DNA of 46,422 nucleotides from Methylococcus sp. UBA6136 (GCA_002423305.1 DIVI01000054.1:15937-62358), one strand, 5' to 3'; shown: positions 1,047 to 28,193, counted from the stretch's first letter. Numbers and translations: made by a program. Notes: generated by a model not told the origin, from the sequence alone.

Positions 1047-1592
1047 TCAGTTTGCCGGCGCCTGCATGATGCTGTCGATGTTCCTGTCTCGCAGAAACAG
1101 CCGGACCTGATTGGCGTCGGGGATGGTTTGGTAAGGTCCAAGCTTGACCCGGTACCAGCTGGCATATTCCAGCTTGATCTGTTCCAGACGGGGTTTGAGT
1201 TTCGCGAAGTCTTCCAGTCGGGCTTTCAAGGCCTCGGCCTGCTCCTGACTCCTGAAGGCGCCCAGCTGAAGGAAATACTGGCCCACGACGGGTGTTTTTC
1301 CAAGACGGACCTCCCGCTTCTCGCTGTTGACCTCACTCTCCGGGATCTTTCTTTCCGTGTCCGGGAGTAGTTTGAAAAAGCTGAAGTGTGGTGCCGGCAA
1401 GGATGAATCAGGCAGAGCGGGCGGGGCCGGACTCGTCTGGTCCGACACAGGCAGGTAGCGCGGGAGAATCAGCGCGACCAGACCAGCGAGGATCGCCGCC
1501 GTCACAAGCCCCCATCCTAGGCCCGGAAAGGCGGGTTTGGGCTTCTTCTTTTGCTGAAAACCCGGAACACGATGCTTGAGATCTTTCGCCAT
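1047..1592 (-). CDS. SPOR-domain (peptidoglycan-binding) membrane protein
   Basis: The C-terminus FLQLGAFRSQEQAEALKARLE...YRVKLGPYQTIPDANQV is a SPOR domain, and one TM helix (GWGLVTAAILAGLVALIL) lies N-terminal. I chose the internal ATG at 1592 (MAKDLKHR...), 5 nt past the argS stop. The track start at 1667 would overlap argS by 71 nt. Confidence 0.75.
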   Translation of the reverse strand: MAKDLKHRVPGFQQKKKPKPAFPGLGWGLVTAAILAGLVALILPRYLPVSDQTSPAPPALPDSSLPAPHFSFFKLLPDTERKIPESEVNSEKREVRLGKTPVVGQYFLQLGAFRSQEQAEALKARLEDFAKLKPRLEQIKLEYASWYRVKLGPYQTIPDANQVRLFLRDRNIDSIMQAPAN

Positions 1593-1596
1593 AGGA

Positions 1597-3360
1597 TTAC
1601 ATCGATTCCGGCGCCGAGACATCCAGCAGCGCCAGCCCGTTGGCGATGACCTGCCGGACCGCCGCAATCAGGTTCAGGCGGGCGTCGCGCAGATCGGCAT
1701 CCTCGACCAGGAACTGGTGCGAGTTGTAATAGCCATGCAGTTCGGCGGCCAGGTCGCGCAAATAATGAATCAGGTGATGCGGTGCATGCTGCAGCGCGGA
1801 TTGCTGCACCACCTCCGGATAGCGCGTCAGTGTGGTCACCAGGGCGTTCTCATGCGGCTCGGTCAGTCGGCTCAGGTGTGTCATGCCGTTCGGCAGGTTG
1901 CGCGGCAAGCCCTTCTCATCGAGCTGGCGAAACACACTGCACACACGGGCGTGGGCGTACTGCACGTAATAGACCGGGTTTTCGTTGGTGCGCGAGGTCG
2001 CCAGCTTGAGGTCGAAGTCCATGTGCTGGTCGGACTTGCGCATGACGTAGAAGAAGCGCGCTGCGTCCTTGCCGACCTCGTTGCGCAACTGCCGCAGCGT
2101 CACGAACTCGCCGGAGCGGGTCGACATCTGCACCTTCTCCTCGCCGCGATACAGCACGGCGAACTGCACCAGCAGCACGTCCAGCTTGTCCCGCTCGCCG
2201 CCCAGCGCCTCGATGGCGGCCTTCACCCGGGGAATGTAGCCGTGATGGTCGGCGCCCCAGATATTGATAATGCGATCAAAGCCACGCTCCAGCTTCTGCA
2301 TGTGGTAGGCAATGTCGGAGGCAAAATAGGTCATCTGGCCGTTCTCGCGCACCACCACCCGGTCCTTTTCGTCGCCGAGGCGGGTCGAGGCGAACCAGGT
2401 GGCGCCGTCCTGCTGATACAGGTAGCCGGCCGTCTGCAGCGTGTCGAGTGAACGCTGCACGGCGCCGGAGTCAGTCAGGCCGCGCTCGGAAAACCATTCC
2501 TCATAGTGGACGCCGAATTCCTCCAGATCCTGGCGGATGTCGGCAAGGATGTCGTTGAGGCCGGCGTCGAACACCTCCCGGTAGTCCGTCGAGCCAAGCA
2601 ACTCCTTGGCCCGGCCCACCAGCGCGTCGATATGCAGTTCCTTGTCGCCGCCCTGTGGCTCGTCGTCGGGGATGCCGGCGAAAACCTCGGCCGCCGGTCG
2701 GCGCAGGCGCTCGCCCTGGGCCTTGTGCAGATCAAAGGCGATGGCGCGCACGTACTCGCCGCGATAGCCATTACTGGGAAACACCAAGCTCTCGCCGCAT
2801 TCCTCCAGATAACGCAGCCAGACGCTGGCGGCCAGGATGTCCATCTGCCGGCCGGCGTCATTCACGTAATACTCGCGATGCACCTCACAGCCGATGGCGG
2901 CCAGCAGGTTGGCCACCACCGCGCCATAGGCCGCGCCTCGCCCGTGGCCAACATGCAGCGGGCCGGTCGGGTTGGCGGAGACGAATTCCACCTGCACTCG
3001 CTGGCCGGCGCCGCTGCTGCGGCTCTTGCCGAACTCGTGGCCGGCCTCGTGAATATCGCGGATGACGCCAAACTGCGCCTGCGGGTCGATGAAGAAATTG
3101 ATGAAGCCGGGACCGGCGATTTCGACCTTGGTTACAACGGGGTCTGCCGCCAGGGCGGCGATGATTTTTTCCGCAAGTGCTCTTGGGTTGCTGCGGGCCG
3201 GCTTGGCCAGCGTCATGGCCAGATTGGTGGCGAAATCGCCATGCTGGGCGTCGCGGGCCCTTTCAATCAGGCACTCAGGTTCCAGTTCGGTGGGCAGATC
3301 CCCATTGCTTTTGAGGATGGCAACAGCATCCAGCAGTAATTCTTCCAGGCGTTTTTTCAT
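1597..3360 (-). CDS. argS: Arginine--tRNA ligase
   Basis: The 587-aa ORF has the class I HIGH-type motif ([14 protein letters not shown]), an MSTRSG (KMSKS-like) motif and an anticodon-binding C-terminus. It is alignable end to end with ArgS by eye. Confidence 0.97.
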
Positions 3361-3439
3361 TCGGAGGGCGGCGGCGGGGAGGGTGAGTGGGCCGGCTATT
3401 ATCCTTAAAAGCCATCAGCGATGACAATCGCACTGATTT

Positions 3440-6367
3440 TCAAGGAGCTGGATTCGATTCGCCGGCCTGAGCGCGGGCCAGTCGACGCAAATCGGCCTCG
3501 TGTCGTTCGGTCAAACGCTCGATCTTGTGACGTAGCCAGCCGAGATCTTCCCGAAGCAGGCTATTTTCCGGGAACTCGATGGCCAACTTTTCGATGATGC
3601 CGCGGGCGGTTTGATATCGGGCGAGGGCGGCGGTGATGTTTTTTTCCAACTCACGGCTGCGCCCAAGCTTGATGAGAACCGTCGCGATGTCGCGGCGGTG
3701 AATGCCATCGAAAGCCGACTGATGGGCCGGATTTTCGGCGATCAGCAAAAAGCGTTGAAAATGATGATCAGCCTCGGCGGGATCGTCCAGGCCATTCAGC
3801 GTATCGCCCAGATTTTTGTGGCAAAGCGCGACATCTCTCTGCCATTCCGGGTTGTCGGGTTGGAGGTGGGCGGTGTTCTCGGCAATCGCCAGTGCGGTGC
3901 GGTAGCGATTGAGCGCCCCGGAGAGGTCATCCTTGGCGCGCAGGATGTCACCGATACGGTTGTGAGTAGCAGCCGGGGCCCGCGCGAACCGCACCTGCTG
4001 GGGTTGGGCCTCGGCCAGTTTCTCGAAATGGGCGAGGGCATGCTCCAATTGGGTCATGGCCGTTTCGCTGTTCTTCAATGCGATATTCAGTTCTGCCAGG
4101 TCGGCGTGGCTGCTGGCTAGATCGAATTCCAGCGAGCTGTCTTCGGACGCAAGGTGATGAAGTTTGCCGATCAGACCATGAACGGCTTGCTGGCTCTGCA
4201 AGGCCCCCTCCACGTCACCCAGTTCCTTTTGCAGGCTTCCTATCTTGATGTTCAGTCGCAGTGCATCGCGGAGGCGATCCTGTCCCAGGGTTTCCTGCTT
4301 GGCAATGAAGGTCCGAATCCCCAAGCTTTTGCGGTAATGATCCAGTGCCGATGAGGAATCCTTCTGTTCCACCAACAGGTCACCCAGCTGTTCCTGGATG
4401 CGGGCAAAGTCTCGTTGCCGTGCGCCATTTTGTGGATCGATTGCCATGGCTCTGACCAGGTAGGCACTGGCAGCCCGATACCATTGCATGGCGCGTCTGC
4501 TTGCGCCATGCATGAGGTCCAGATCGGCCAGGTGAATGGCCAGACGGATGCGGCCGGTGACTTCTGCGGCACTGTCCTCGGCCTCTATCGGCCTGTCGCG
4601 CAGATCCTCGGTCAGTTTTCTTCCGTGAGCCGCCAGTGCGTCGAGCCGGCGCCAATCCCGGCTGGCATGGCAGGACTCGGCGATGATATACAGGGCCTGC
4701 AGTGCGGATTCTTTTAGCAAGAGTTGTCGGGGAGACACAGTCACCACCTGGTTGATGGCCTTGCCGGCTAACTCATAAATCTGCAGTGCATTATCTGTCC
4801 GTGTTGCCAAGCCATGCTTCACCAGGCTGCTGGCGCCCTCTTCGACATACAGTCGGGCAGCGTCAGTTGACAGGGGGACTTCCTGTGGCTCGTTGAGAAA
4901 AATGGTGAAGAGGTCCTCTTTCCGGTCATCCGCGCTTAAGCCGCTGAGTATCAGGCACTCGGTCAGGAAATCCAGGGGCAGCGGGGTATCCCCCAGCTCC
5001 GCCGCCAGTCGGAGTATGTCTCGGCCCGCCCCTCCCAGAGCCCTCAGGCTTTCGAGAATCATTGCTGCGCAGGCGGTTTCACGGGATTCAGGAAACTGTC
5101 CGGGCCAGTGCTGGCTGAATTCGCTCGCAGGTTTGTTCTTCTTCTCCAGCTTTTGCAGCAGCCAATTGAAGGTGGCGCGGCGATGTCGGCGATGACCCTC
5201 TGCCAGGGCGGCCATCATGGCGATGAACCGCGGATGTCGGCCCACCGCCTCACTTAACCAGTTCGCAGCGTCCATGTCCTCACCCCGTCCGGTCGCCTTG
5301 TTCTGTGTGATGGCGAGGAGTCCGGCGGCCTCATCGAGGATGGGCAGGTGAATGGGTTCTCCCCGATGGTCGTAGCGTGGGCTGCATGTCACGAAAATGG
5401 TTCGGCCCAGCCGAGGGGATTGGTTTTGCGCTGTGGGGGCCAGCCACTGCTGGATGACCGGGCCATTGATGCCTTCGGGAAGATCGTCGACTATCCAGAG
5501 GAAAGGCTGGCCTGCACGGTCGAGAAGGTCCCCTAGATCGGTCATCACTGCGGCAAGGGGACTCTGTTCGTCTAGCTGGGTGTCAGGACTGATTTGGCGG
5601 AGCAGGGATAGCAGTTGAGGCGCCAGTGCGGGGTTTTCAGCCAGTTCCCTGAGTCTGAGCGCAGGTGTCGCCCCGCGGGCCGAAATGCGGAAAATACCGC
5701 CGGGGTAGGCTGCACTGAAACGAAAAGCATATTCGCGCGTCAGGGTGGATTTTCCTAATCCGGGAGGGGCGGAGACCACGATGAAGGAAGGGGAATGCCC
5801 ATGAACGCCCATTGACGGATGAGTCAACCCGTCATGAATATCCCAAAGCTCTCGCTCTCTGCCGGCGAAGAGAACAGGGCCATGAGTCAAGGTGTCATAA
5901 GGTTCGATCCAGCCGGCGTGTGCTTGCGGGTAAAGCCCGCCCAGCGTTCCGTCTAATCGTGCGCAGCATTGATGTAATTTTTCTGCCAGCGCCGGGATGT
6001 CCGGGGTGTCTGATTGATCCGTTGTGGGGGGGATGATGTAATCCCTGAGTTGCAGGGGATAGATATGCTTGAGGCCGGTTTCGGCGTTGACAACCAGAAT
6101 CCGTTCGGGAGTCGAGGTGGCCTCTCGCTGGCGAGCGATCCAGGCCATGGCGAGATGGGTCTGACAGGCCCGCGACCGGAAGAAACCCTCTGAAGCCCAA
6201 ACGAGAAAACTTTTGGATGTGGTGAGTTTGGGGTGCAGGTCGCTGCCGTGCCCGCCTTCATAGTTAAAACAGGACACACCTCGCGCCGCCAGGGCGGCTG
6301 TCAGCCGTTTGACGGTGGCGGCGGATGCCGGGTCATGACAGATGAAAACGTCGTGGGGGCCGGACAA
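3440..6367 (-). CDS. TIR / NB-ARC (STAND P-loop NTPase) / TPR-repeat protein, bacterial NLR-like
   Basis: A TTG start at 6367 has GGAG 9 nt upstream. The N-terminus is TIR-like (DVFICHD...SFLVWASEGFFRSRACQTHL). The STAND module shows FAGRERELWDI, Walker A SAPPGLGKST (Lys codon 5750-5752), Walker B FLWIVDDLPE, TIFVTCSPR and GRHPRFIAMMA. The C-terminal ~400 aa consist of repeated TPR-like units. Confidence 0.85.
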   Translation of the reverse strand: MSGPHDVFICHDPASAATVKRLTAALAARGVSCFNYEGGHGSDLHPKLTTSKSFLVWASEGFFRSRACQTHLAMAWIARQREATSTPERILVVNAETGLKHIYPLQLRDYIIPPTTDQSDTPDIPALAEKLHQCCARLDGTLGGLYPQAHAGWIEPYDTLTHGPVLFAGRERELWDIHDGLTHPSMGVHGHSPSFIVVSAPPGLGKSTLTREYAFRFSAAYPGGIFRISARGATPALRLRELAENPALAPQLLSLLRQISPDTQLDEQSPLAAVMTDLGDLLDRAGQPFLWIVDDLPEGINGPVIQQWLAPTAQNQSPRLGRTIFVTCSPRYDHRGEPIHLPILDEAAGLLAITQNKATGRGEDMDAANWLSEAVGRHPRFIAMMAALAEGHRRHRRATFNWLLQKLEKKNKPASEFSQHWPGQFPESRETACAAMILESLRALGGAGRDILRLAAELGDTPLPLDFLTECLILSGLSADDRKEDLFTIFLNEPQEVPLSTDAARLYVEEGASSLVKHGLATRTDNALQIYELAGKAINQVVTVSPRQLLLKESALQALYIIAESCHASRDWRRLDALAAHGRKLTEDLRDRPIEAEDSAAEVTGRIRLAIHLADLDLMHGASRRAMQWYRAASAYLVRAMAIDPQNGARQRDFARIQEQLGDLLVEQKDSSSALDHYRKSLGIRTFIAKQETLGQDRLRDALRLNIKIGSLQKELGDVEGALQSQQAVHGLIGKLHHLASEDSSLEFDLASSHADLAELNIALKNSETAMTQLEHALAHFEKLAEAQPQQVRFARAPAATHNRIGDILRAKDDLSGALNRYRTALAIAENTAHLQPDNPEWQRDVALCHKNLGDTLNGLDDPAEADHHFQRFLLIAENPAHQSAFDGIHRRDIATVLIKLGRSRELEKNITAALARYQTARGIIEKLAIEFPENSLLREDLGWLRHKIERLTERHEADLRRLARAQAGESNPAP

Positions 6368-6560
6368 AGGGGAACGCTCCTGCCGAGGAAATCAATATTT
6401 TGGGCATCTCATTGTATCCCGAATGTTTCGCCAACGATGAATTGAACCTCCATCGCTGAACGCTTGATGGCCGACCGTCGACAGTTGATCATTGGCTGCA
6501 TTAATCCCCCTTTGATTGTGTATGATTTAGCTTACTTTCCAATCATAAAAGACCCATTTC

Positions 6561-26075: not shown

Positions 26076-26150
26076 TTTCGGAATCTCTGCCGATTTTCCA
26101 GTGAAGTGCCCGCAGATGGTTTCAACCCCAATAAAAACCCACTCAATACC

Positions 26151-28193
26151 ATGTTCAGGAAGCTAACGCTTTTCACCCTTTTGATTGCGCTCTGTGTTGT
26201 GCTGATGGGCGCTTACGTGCGGATTTCCGACGCAGGTCTCGGTTGCCCTGACTGGCCTGGCTGCTATGGAAAGCTGATCGTCGATCCTGCTGCAGCAGGC
26301 GGCCACGCAGCGGCGGGTAACTTCGATGCGTCCAAGGCCTGGAAAGAGATGACCCACCGCTACCTGGCGGGTGGATTGGGTGTGCTGGTCCTGTTGCTTG
26401 TCGCACTTTCGTTCCGAGTGCATGAACGGCGAAATCGTGTGATCGGTTGGAGTGTTGGTGCGCTGCTCCTCATCATTTTTCAGGCTCTCCTTGGCATGTG
26501 GGCGGTCAAATACAAGGTTATGCCGATGGTGGTCACGGCCCATCTGATGGCCGGGTTCATCACTCTTTGGCTGCTGTATCGACTTTATATGCTCACGGGT
26601 CCCCAATCTGCGCCGACGGAAAAGGTGACCGGCTTGCTCTGGTTGAGCCGGTTGGGCTTGCTCCTGGTCCTGATGCAAACGGCCCTTGGCGGTTGGGTAT
26701 CCTCCAATTATACGGCTCTGTCATGTCCGGACTTTCCGACGTGCCTTGGAAGCTGGATGCCGGAAATGGATTTCTCTTCGATTGTTTCTGGCATTGTCCA
26801 TCCTGAAAATTATCAGGGCAGCCTGTTACCGCCAGCAGCCCGAGTGGGTATTCACTACCTGCACCGCTTGGGCGCCGTGCTGACGTTCCTGGTTCTTACC
26901 GCGCTCGCGATGGGGGTGACCTCCAATCGCAAGGTGCCGCGACTCAGCAAGCCGGGCTTGTTGCTGAGCTTTCTTTTGCTGGTGCAGATTGGCCTTGGGA
27001 TGGCGTTAGTCTTGCTGCGTCTGCCGGTCGCGATCGCGGTCGCCCATCATGCCGTCGCCGCGCTTCTGTTGTTGCTGGTGGCCCATCTTCATTATTTCCT
27101 GGGGTTGACCGTTCGTCGGGCCGACAAGGTTGTCAGCCCCGCTGAATTCGTTGAGTCGCCCGCCCAGCTGGAAGCCATCCCGCCGGTGACCCTGCCTCCG
27201 CTCACCTTTCCCGAGGTGGCTCCGGAGCCTGTTTCACAAAAGCCGGAAGCCAAGGTGCCCTCGGCCGAAGGGCTTTTTGTCAGGCTCAAGAGTCAGTTAG
27301 GCAAAACCCGGGGGGGGCTGACGGGCTTCCTTGGCACTCTGGCGCTGGGTAAGAAAACTATAGACCGTGAGTTTCTGGATGATCTGGAAGCCCAATTGCT
27401 GACGGCGGATATTGGCGTCACCGCTACCCAGGACATCATCGAACATCTGACCGAAAGCCTGGAGCGCCATGAGCTCGCCGATATTGATGTGGTCAAGGAT
27501 CGGCTCCGCACCTATCTGCATGAAATGATCGCCCCGGTGAGCAGGCCGTTGGTGATCGCTGATGAAACCCGGCCCTTCGTAATCCTGGTCGTGGGTGTCA
27601 ACGGGGTGGGCAAGACCACGACCATCGGCAAGCTGGCCAAACGGCTGCAGAACCAGGGCCATAGCGTGATGCTGGCTGCGGGAGATACGTTCCGCGCGGC
27701 AGCTGTCGAGCAGTTGCAGACCTGGGGTGAGCGCAATCAGGTTCTGGTCATTGCCCAGCATACCGGCGCAGATTCAGCTTCGGTCATCTTTGATGCCCTG
27801 CAGGCGGCGCAGGCGCGAGGTATTGACGTTCTGATCGCCGATACGGCCGGACGGTTGCATAACAAATCCAACCTCATGGAGGAGCTCAGCAAGATCAAGC
27901 GCATCATGGCGCGGCTGGATGAGTCGGCCCCACACGAAGTCCTGTTGGTGCTTGATGCGGGTACGGGACAGAATGCCATCAATCAGGCCCGACAGTTTGG
28001 AGAAGCCGTGGGGCTGACCGGCATTGCGCTGACCAAGCTGGATGGCACGGCCAAGGGAGGCATCATTTTTGCCCTCGGCAAGCAGTTCGGAATACCCATC
28101 CGCTTCATTGGCTTAGGGGAGGGCATTGATGATCTCCAGGATTTCAATGCCGAGCAATTTATTGATGCCCTGTTTACGGATTCCGGGGTCTGA
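26151..28193 (+). CDS. Heme A synthase (CtaA/COX15) fused in frame to signal-recognition-particle receptor FtsY
   Basis: This is one ORF with no stop. The N-terminal half is polytopic COX15 (GAYVRISDAGLGCPDWPGC, EMTHRYLAG, ALSCPDFPTC, His-containing helices). A Pro/Glu/Ala linker spans 27111-27269. A complete FtsY NG domain follows (LFVRLKSQLGKTRGGL, GVNGVGKTTT, DTAGR, TKLD). I chose the ATG at 26151 over the GTG at 26106. Confidence 0.85.
   Translation: MFRKLTLFTLLIALCVVLMGAYVRISDAGLGCPDWPGCYGKLIVDPAAAGGHAAAGNFDASKAWKEMTHRYLAGGLGVLVLLLVALSFRVHERRNRVIGWSVGALLLIIFQALLGMWAVKYKVMPMVVTAHLMAGFITLWLLYRLYMLTGPQSAPTEKVTGLLWLSRLGLLLVLMQTALGGWVSSNYTALSCPDFPTCLGSWMPEMDFSSIVSGIVHPENYQGSLLPPAARVGIHYLHRLGAVLTFLVLTALAMGVTSNRKVPRLSKPGLLLSFLLLVQIGLGMALVLLRLPVAIAVAHHAVAALLLLLVAHLHYFLGLTVRRADKVVSPAEFVESPAQLEAIPPVTLPPLTFPEVAPEPVSQKPEAKVPSAEGLFVRLKSQLGKTRGGLTGFLGTLALGKKTIDREFLDDLEAQLLTADIGVTATQDIIEHLTESLERHELADIDVVKDRLRTYLHEMIAPVSRPLVIADETRPFVILVVGVNGVGKTTTIGKLAKRLQNQGHSVMLAAGDTFRAAAVEQLQTWGERNQVLVIAQHTGADSASVIFDALQAAQARGIDVLIADTAGRLHNKSNLMEELSKIKRIMARLDESAPHEVLLVLDAGTGQNAINQARQFGEAVGLTGIALTKLDGTAKGGIIFALGKQFGIPIRFIGLGEGIDDLQDFNAEQFIDALFTDSGV

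Follow-up and report, generated by a model that had tools for sequence, protein, structure and literature searches.

A TIR-STAND-TPR protein of Methylococcaceae, encoded beside argS, with a TIR domain that lacks the catalytic glutamate

Does a bacterial gene with the layout of an immune receptor also work as one? The question is raised by a stretch of 46,422 nucleotides (nt) from Methylococcus sp. UBA6136 (GCA_002423305.1, DIVI01000054.1:15937-62358), referred to here as the window, in which positions 3440..6367 of the minus strand hold a complete coding sequence for a protein of 975 amino acids (aa) with an N-terminal TIR domain, a STAND NTPase and C-terminal TPR-like repeats. TIR-STAND-repeat proteins are of a known kind, represented for example by the plant TNLs and the TIR-type Avs proteins, and bacterial TIR-STANDs are usually read as fast-turnover anti-phage effectors of defence islands that consume nicotinamide adenine dinucleotide (NAD+). 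The initial annotation, made from the sequence alone, had proposed a candidate single-gene immune or signalling sensor. The order of the three domains was borne out by profile searches, AlphaFold2 (AF2) modelling and Foldseek comparison, and as far as domain order goes, the layout can fairly be likened to TNLs and Avs. The architecture speaks for a sensor, but the proposed immune mechanism and role are doubtful, given the loss of the catalytic Glu, the lack of a PADLOC match, the fixed position of the gene away from defence or mobile genes, the purifying selection acting on it and the lack of a direct Pfam NB-ARC match. The window protein probably differs from a standard anti-phage sensor that destroys NAD+.

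A database search returned ≈61 full-length homologues of 906–1009 aa with identities from 100% down to 33%, referred to below as the family; beyond these lie more distant TIR/NB-ARC/TPR proteins at 26–31% identity. The TIR domain comprises aa 1–115 of the window protein (6023..6367, minus strand, as for all features of the gene). Pfam TIR_2 matched it over aa ≈5–110 with E = 1.7e-5 and 25.7 bits, slightly below the 28-bit cut-off, and matched 32 of 38 family members, the best at 1.8e-10. When a profile of the first 160 residues of the family was compared with the PDB, the matches, at 4e-6 to 1e-4, included TcpB/BtpA (4e-6), AbTIR, PdTIR and RUN1 (8e-5). An AF2 model of the TIR domain had a predicted local distance difference test (pLDDT) score of 84, and its best 25 Foldseek matches in the PDB were all TIR domains. 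If the fold is defined by a flavodoxin-like β-α arrangement with a βA motif of D-hydrophobic-F-hydrophobic-S and an αC motif of S-R-x-C, the window protein has a TIR fold. A linker of one helix (aa 116–165; 5873..6022) leads to the NTPase and is conserved along with the TIR subtype in the outgroup described below.

The residue on which TIR catalysis depends is, however, replaced. The catalytic Glu of TIR NADases is located in αC (E100 in RUN1, E642 in SARM1 and E208 in AbTir). In the profile alignment, RUN1 E100, within the canonical SRWCLDEL, is paired with H71 of the window protein, within SRACQTHL; the His71 codon is found at 6155..6157. Without a catalytic Glu in αC, the window protein would not qualify as a TIR NADase by its sequence. 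The same column in the 38 family members contains His in 26, Gln in eight, Glu in two, and Arg and Leu in one each, so that 36/38 are non-Glu; two further family representatives have Ile and Cys. No alternative invariant acidic residue was found in the TIR domain of the family. The residues that are invariant, and that define the subtype, are R66, Q69, L72, R89, N94, H101 and P104. A change from Glu to Gln or His is of the type that keeps substrate binding and removes catalysis, as in E-to-Q trapping mutants.

A search of 1.84 billion representatives with a hidden Markov model (HMM) identified 1,297 proteins with this type of TIR domain, 612 of them at E ≤ 1e-10, and the best 150 were scored. 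About 12 of these belong to the Methylococcaceae family and 139 to an outgroup. Among these best 150, the outgroup has the catalytic Glu in 139/139, Cys68 in 139/139, Arg89 in 139/139 and His101 in 138/139, whereas Glu is present in only two of the 12 family representatives. Outgroup loci from metagenomes likewise kept the Glu in 62/62 scorable cases, and the contrast between family and outgroup gave a Fisher p of ≈1e-35. The outgroup TIRs match the defence models PDC-S66, SAVED-TIR and ThsB, while family members do not. In an outgroup-rooted tree, the Methylococcaceae family was monophyletic and Glu occurred only in the scattered or basal members P0242, P0059 and P0047. Because of this combination of a monophyletic family and scattered or basal Glu-keeping members, the tree implies that the Glu must have been replaced at least four times independently: to Ile, to Leu, to Gln (with His and Arg derivatives) and to His. 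The path from Glu to Gln to His consists of single-nucleotide steps, and His is near-fixed in the window's clade (25/26).

The middle of the protein is a STAND NTPase, which we defined as a P-loop NTPase with the motifs GxxGxGK[ST] (Walker A) and hhhhD[DE] (Walker B), a helical domain and a winged helix after these, and a fused repeat sensor. All of these are present in the window protein, as judged from the motifs, the AAA_16 match, the domains of the AF2 model and the Foldseek matches. The nucleotide-binding domain (NBD; aa 166–345; 5333..5872) contains an invariant pre-P-loop sequence F.GRERELWD, the two Walker motifs and the sensor-1 position. Walker A, or P-loop, APPGLGKS (5747..5770) includes K206, and Walker B FLWIVDDL (5480..5503) includes D294 and D295, both motifs lying where the initial annotation had placed them. 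The residues that bind the nucleotide are invariant in the family: K206 and G203 are each found in 38/38 members, and position 294 is Asp in 35 and Glu in three, that is, acidic in 38/38. Positions linked to hydrolysis are somewhat relaxed, with D295 conserved in 30/38 (the others being five Asn, two Glu and one Gly) versus 93/100 in the outgroup, and the sensor-1 Arg in 28/38 versus 92/100. At this last position the window protein has Cys328 (5384..5386; VTCSPRY), while P0002, which is 90% identical, has Arg; the substitution may lower NTP hydrolysis in this organism.

After the NBD come a helical domain, which carries the GxP-type motif GRHP (aa 376–379), and a winged helix with a β-hairpin (together aa 346–545; 4733..5332). 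The winged helix had been predicted in the initial annotation and is seen at aa 446–541 of the AF2 model. Within this region, a loop at aa 476–500 (4868..4942; DRKEDLFTIFLNEPQEVPL) had pLDDT values of only 56–72, yet it is near-invariant across the window's clade and may be a linear interaction motif. The full-length AF2 model, calculated from the family alignment, had a pLDDT of 89.3 and a predicted template modelling (pTM) score of 0.79, and Foldseek placed it closest to the STAND-TPR protein of P. horikoshii (PDB 6mfv; 1.3e-13), followed by Avs3 and SAMD9. When the PDB was searched by sequence, the full-length profile found TPR and TIR matches only and no STAND protein; the STAND relation came from the structure comparison.

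The label NB-ARC, which the initial annotation had used alongside STAND, fared less well. The best Pfam match of the NTPase is AAA_16, which scored 30.6 bits on the window protein, slightly below the curated cut-off, and was found in 30/38 family members. Pfam NB-ARC (PF00931) matched only 2/38 members, weakly (best 1.6e-3), and gave no match in the window protein. As for the NB-ARC hallmarks (the sensor-1 Arg of the RNBS-B motif TTR, the GLPL motif and the MHD motif), the GxP-like GRHP is present, there is no clear MHD motif, and the sensor-1 residue, Cys in the window protein, is Arg in 28/38. PF00931 does occur in related outgroup proteins. The module is thus a STAND NTPase, to which the name NB-ARC would extend through its relatives only.

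The C-terminal arm (aa 546–975; 3443..4732) is an α-solenoid of seven to eight TPR-like helical hairpins and a terminal long helix, visible as helix pairs in the AF2 model. The repeats noted in the initial annotation are genuine, since Pfam TPR_12 matched at 1e-12 and the seven to eight units could be aligned gap-free over aa 597–975, but their period is 48 aa and not the 40–45 aa originally given. The locus L036:502-3510, a basal, Glu-retaining member that does not adjoin argS, has five to six near-identical tandem 48-aa TPR units (DPANAGWQRDLSVSHNKIGDVL...ASYRAGLAIAEKLAAQ), which suggests a recent expansion of the repeats.

All parts of the gene are conserved by selection. Pairwise Nei-Gojobori comparisons with three relatives gave ratios of nonsynonymous to synonymous substitution (dN/dS) of 0.09–0.13 for the whole gene, 0.17–0.20 for the TIR domain, 0.11–0.18 for the TIR-NBD linker, 0.08–0.15 for the NBD, 0.07–0.08 for the helical domain and winged helix, and 0.08–0.14 for the TPR arm, compared to 0.06–0.08 for argS. 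Every domain is therefore under purifying selection, and the gene is no relic. At the level of these coarse pairwise ratios, there was no sign of diversifying selection on the TPR arm. A separate observation concerns the 345 nt that encode the TIR domain (6023..6367), for which dS was below that of the whole gene in the three pairwise comparisons (0.24 vs 0.45, 0.42 vs 0.56 and 0.90 vs 1.45). Possible causes are a constraint on the mRNA or the start region and local recombination.

The gene also has a fixed place in the genome. Its downstream neighbour is argS (1597..3360, minus strand), followed by a SPOR-domain gene (1047..1667). Among the 29 distinct family loci with downstream sequence, argS is directly downstream and co-oriented in 25, with three different upstream flanks. 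Eight loci from GTDB genomes share the order Mla operon, TIR gene, argS, SPOR down to 52% identity; both flanks are on the contig in six of these, while L003 and L008 stop inside the neighbouring genes. Methylomagnum (36%) and a 202-kb metagenomic contig (33%) have another upstream neighbour, but the gene still lies directly before co-oriented argS-SPOR. A scan of metagenomes added 17 family loci, 14 of which have argS immediately downstream. It is not downstream in L022 and L025, where other genes follow the TIR gene, or in the basal, Glu-retaining L036. None of 63 outgroup loci from metagenomes had argS nearby. In one locus, L020:4877-9848, on the same contig as L018, a five-gene operon of ≈5 kb (TetR, MacB permease, ABC ATPase, membrane-fusion protein and outer-membrane factor) is inserted between an intact TIR gene and argS.

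The initial annotation had pointed out that only 79 nt, with no visible terminator, separate the gene from argS. We found no minus-strand terminator in this spacer either; it does contain a conserved argS promoter that had been missed. The promoter, a σ70-like TTGTCA-18-GATAAT (3398..3427, minus strand), is autonomous; it is not part of the TIR gene and marks its 3′ boundary. Its consensus, ATTGnCAG-N17-TTTTAGGATAAT with an extended upstream T-tract, was found upstream of argS in L001–L015, and the promoter is kept in all related loci, including three genomes without the TIR gene. The spacer itself ranges from 71 to 319 nt across loci. As the promoter is kept with or without the TIR gene, argS would be transcribed on its own, and the linkage, judged from the sequences, is positional and by descent, rather than operonic or co-transcriptional. 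An operon with argS was considered and rejected, based on the promoter in genomes that lack the TIR gene and the 5 kb between the genes in L020. The earlier description of the TIR gene as monocistronic is not demonstrated, since no terminator follows it, although argS has its own promoter.

All named members of the family are from Methylococcaceae: lake and sediment metagenome-assembled genomes, Methylomagnum ishizawai RS11D (MishRS11D_25830) and Methyloparacoccus murrellii (JCM19379_05130). The named copies are annotated as “hypothetical protein” or “ATP-binding protein”. Three relatives that have argS-SPOR (Methylocaldum sp., Methylococcus sp. EFPC2 and one other), with argS 76–81% identical to that of the window, do not have the TIR gene. 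The initial annotation had singled out variability of the interval between argS and the MCE operon as informative, and strict conservation as a core gene, combined with the lack of a phage, toxicity or NAD phenotype, as evidence against a sensor. With the gene missing from three relatives, conservation is not strict. The trees of argS and of the TIR gene were only partly congruent (Spearman 0.40), and strict vertical core-gene inheritance was rejected on these two grounds. No copy of the family was found in phage records, and plasmid records contained only outgroup-type proteins at 26–29% identity, on alphaproteobacterial megaplasmids. The gene thus belongs neither to the strict core genome nor to a mobile island. 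Its history is explained most simply by an old acquisition upstream of argS, followed by vertical descent, several losses, a few rearrangements and perhaps exchange between related lineages.

Neither the known defence systems nor their usual surroundings could be recognized at these loci. PADLOC, which the initial annotation had recommended as a check, gave no defence STAND match on the window protein, and in the 38 family members no Avs, bNACHT or other STAND model was matched, only weak P-loop models; NCBIfam returned nothing specific for the window protein and the 38 members. No second TIR or STAND open reading frame (ORF) that could be a linked partner was found in the window or any flank, no linked effector or partner gene in ≈30 loci, and no mobile-element or defence genes near the TIR gene. 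An Avs/AVAST system is defined by a family model, a defence island and an active effector; here, there is no PADLOC match in 38 members, the context is core and the effector lacks its catalytic residue. A bNACHT assignment has no NACHT Pfam or PADLOC match behind it. Thoeris consists of a TIR gene and an operonic effector, whereas no linked effector in ≈30 loci and no second TIR were found. The LRR and C-JID/post-LRR region of a plant-type TNL have their place taken by 48-aa TPR-like repeats. What the window protein does belong to is the bacterial TIR-STAND-TPR family with the same TIR subtype, within which its own family is a monophyletic, Glu-less branch.

The closest proteins are therefore the uncharacterised outgroup TIR-STAND(NB-ARC/AP-ATPase-like)-TPR proteins, such as P0064, P0068 and a “tetratricopeptide repeat protein” from an Azospirillum lipoferum 4B megaplasmid. 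Over 150 aa, linker included, they match the TIR HMM of the family at 1e-24 to 1e-37; the NTPase HMM of the family matches 103/105 of them, their sensor is of the TPR type, and the motifs SR.CQ.xL, R89, N94 and HI.P..LR are shared. They differ in keeping the catalytic Glu (139/139; 62/62) together with a neighbouring Cys (139/139), in often scoring on Pfam NB-ARC, and in their variable contexts (an NRPS cluster, beside a PIN/MazE pair, megaplasmids; argS in 0/63), and are 26–31% identical to the window protein. The best structural match, 6mfv, shares the NBD, helical domain, winged helix and TPR (E = 1.3e-13 over 823 columns), but is archaeal and has no TIR domain and only 13% identity. In Avs3 (PDB 8dgc; E = 1.4e-8), too, an N-terminal effector precedes a STAND NTPase and a C-terminal TPR-like sensor, although the TM-score was only 0.19 and the family has no PADLOC Avs match. 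Avs genes lie in defence islands and have active enzymes as effectors, unlike the window gene with its fixed position and Glu-less TIR. The plant TNLs (RUN1, ROQ1 and RPP1) likewise combine an N-terminal TIR domain with a STAND NTPase and a repeat sensor, and SRxCxxxL aligns to RUN1. They differ from the window protein in having LRR and C-JID in place of TPR and, at RUN1 E100, Glu in place of His; the BB-loop region of the window protein is ≈7 residues shorter and it has no Pfam NB-ARC match. The animal adaptor TIRs MyD88 and MAL/TIRAP, the latter among the Foldseek matches, signal by assembly and not by catalysis. They share only the fold with the window protein, and the likeness in function would be one of analogy.

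Bacterial TIR/AP-ATPase/TPR proteins have been noted in comparative surveys (PMC8195603), and a 2026 survey distinguished 589 prokaryotic STAND clades, 198 of which are associated with defence and scattered among clades that are not (PMC13581612, section 5). By the effector criterion of that survey, a TIR-STAND would rank as defence-related (PMC13581612). Our literature search found no description of this family, nor of Glu-less TIRs in bacterial STANDs. What is new here is a monophyletic, clade-restricted and positionally fixed branch in which the catalytic residue of the effector was lost repeatedly while the rest of the protein was conserved.

Taken together, the balance tips somewhat towards an NLR-like STAND switch peculiar to this lineage. 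It would be a domesticated or exapted sensor whose TIR domain acts as a scaffold, adaptor or ligand binder, and not a canonical abortive-infection effector that depletes NAD+. Such a protein would descend from the widespread bacterial TIR-STAND-TPR family, its gene having settled in the chromosome of part of the Methylococcaceae, just upstream of the argS promoter. How it might work can be sketched from the STAND paradigm, established with Apaf-1, MalT, the plant NLRs and resistosomes, and Avs3/4. By analogy with these, the TPR arm would keep the protein closed until a ligand on the arm releases the autoinhibition, and exchange of ADP for ATP would then allow NBD-mediated oligomerisation, by which the N-terminal TIR domains would be clustered. 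In the Glu-bearing outgroup, clustering would build NADase sites. In the family, where His, Gln, Arg or Leu (or Ile or Cys) stands in the place of the Glu, the clustered TIRs most likely would not cleave NAD+; they may instead form a scaffold or adaptor without enzymatic function, or a module that binds a nucleotide. Hydrogen bonds to ribose hydroxyls can still be made by His and Gln, as E-to-Q trapping mutants illustrate.

The protein could nevertheless be a canonical Avs- or TNL-like anti-phage sensor, in which the TPR arm binds a phage protein and the oligomerised TIRs deplete NAD+ or make a signalling nucleotide, leading to abortive infection. Its domain order is identical to that of TIR-type Avs and TNL receptors, its ancestry is in a family whose TIRs match PDC-S66, SAVED-TIR and ThsB, its presence among relatives is patchy, and it evolves faster than its neighbours. 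Nevertheless, we consider this improbable, given that the Glu that is invariant in the outgroup is missing in 36/38 members, the window protein included, that no PADLOC STAND or Avs model matches any of the 38, that the window offers no defence-island or mobile context, that the position has stayed fixed over deep divergence and that the TPR arm, with dN/dS of 0.08–0.14, bears no sign of diversifying selection. An immune sensor with a different output, in which an unlinked effector is recruited or activated by the pseudo-TIRs, or an NAD-derived signal from another TIR enzyme is bound, but not cleaved, at the His/Gln site, would agree better with the TIR domain: its dN/dS is ≈0.2, R66, Q69, R89, N94, H101 and P104 are invariant and common to the Glu-bearing outgroup, and replacement by Gln or His would leave substrate binding while abolishing catalysis. 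The animal TIR adaptors operate in a comparable manner. However, ≈30 loci have no linked partner gene, both a second TIR gene nearby and a defence context are lacking, and the argument is wholly one of analogy, so we regard this version as unlikely, although on present data it is inseparable from a non-immune exapted role.

Two other explanations start from the locus rather than from the domains. Functional coupling to argS and the SPOR gene, for instance by co-transcription or by regulating or guarding arginyl-tRNA synthetase or cell division, would account for a gene that stays immediately upstream and co-oriented in 25/29 loci despite differing upstream flanks, with no terminator before argS. 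It is very unlikely, considering that argS has its own conserved promoter even in genomes without the TIR gene, that the spacer varies from 71 to 319 nt, that the TIR gene is intact with 5 kb inserted (L020) or without argS downstream (L022, L025 and L036), and that the protein has no DNA-binding domain. Finally, the gene might be a decaying relic of defence that has lost its activity and is drifting towards a pseudogene, as the lost Glu, the relaxed second Walker B Asp and sensor-1 Arg, and the loss of the gene in some lineages would suggest. This is hardly credible for ORFs that are intact at 906–1009 aa down to 33% identity, with dN/dS of ≈0.1 in every domain, many invariant family-specific residues and a conserved start codon and Shine-Dalgarno sequence.

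Several observations weigh against the domesticated, non-catalytic switch that we favour. The absence of the gene from three relatives is a patchiness typical of accessory and defence genes. The family protein evolves 3–4 times faster than argS and the trees are only partly congruent, both of which would fit some conflict-driven evolution or transfer within the family. Three family members keep the Glu, and some may still be NADases. The near-fixed His in the window's clade could mean a new catalytic or binding role and not plain inactivation. The oligomerisation model is drawn by analogy only. There are also defence-like neighbours at two single loci, not conserved in the family: an AAA_15/AAA_21 ATPase and DUF4276 pair 1.7 kb upstream of the TIR gene (L010:4410-6318), and a divergent Patatin and TPR-S protein (L018:1110-3701).

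The ORF comprises 975 codons, from a TTG start at 6365–6367 to a stop at 3440–3442. The ribosome-binding region (6368..6385; GGCAGGAGC) contains a GGAG Shine-Dalgarno sequence 8–9 nt before the TTG. The TTG and the N-terminal SGPHD are kept in nine related loci, and the same Shine-Dalgarno and TTG are present in L001–L008. This weak, conserved start suggests that expression may be low. The GC content of the gene is 0.57–0.62, the same as that of its flanks. On the side opposite to argS and the SPOR-domain gene, an operon for MlaE/F/D and an auxiliary lipoprotein runs divergently, as the initial annotation had said of the MCE operon. Farther on lie glgX, an RND efflux system, SoxYZ, a PQQ dehydrogenase, ccm genes, pgm and ksgA-pdxA-surA-lptD. 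Apart from the TIR gene, those scanned in the window were all core-type, and the window is ordinary core chromosome. No tRNA was found in the window and no integrase or defence gene among its scanned ORFs. The earlier view that this is not a recent island is upheld. Elsewhere in the window (26106..28193, plus strand), a single 695-aa ORF combines a COX15/CtaA haem A synthase (aa 19–325) with an FtsY-type SRP54 N+G GTPase (aa 413–690); this is either a true fusion or two genes merged through an absent stop.

The locus offers a natural contrast: the Glu is invariant in the sampled outgroup (139 proteins and 62 loci) and was lost repeatedly once the gene had become fixed beside argS in methanotrophs, while purifying selection maintained the NTP-binding switch and the remainder of the TIR domain. 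It may even be, though this is less likely than not, a case of NLR domestication in bacteria, in which an immune-type receptor became a resident, vertically inherited gene and a TIR NADase became a pseudo-enzyme scaffold or a receptor for NAD-derived nucleotides. If so, it would be an independent counterpart to the way in which adaptor TIRs without catalysis evolved in animals, and the repeated Glu/Gln/His replacements would mark selection against catalysis with binding retained. The finding also warns against assigning a defence function from domain architecture alone. If our reading is correct, the cultured hosts Methylomagnum ishizawai and Methyloparacoccus murrellii would provide a tractable system for the role of a non-catalytic bacterial TIR domain and for the repurposing of immune-type receptors.

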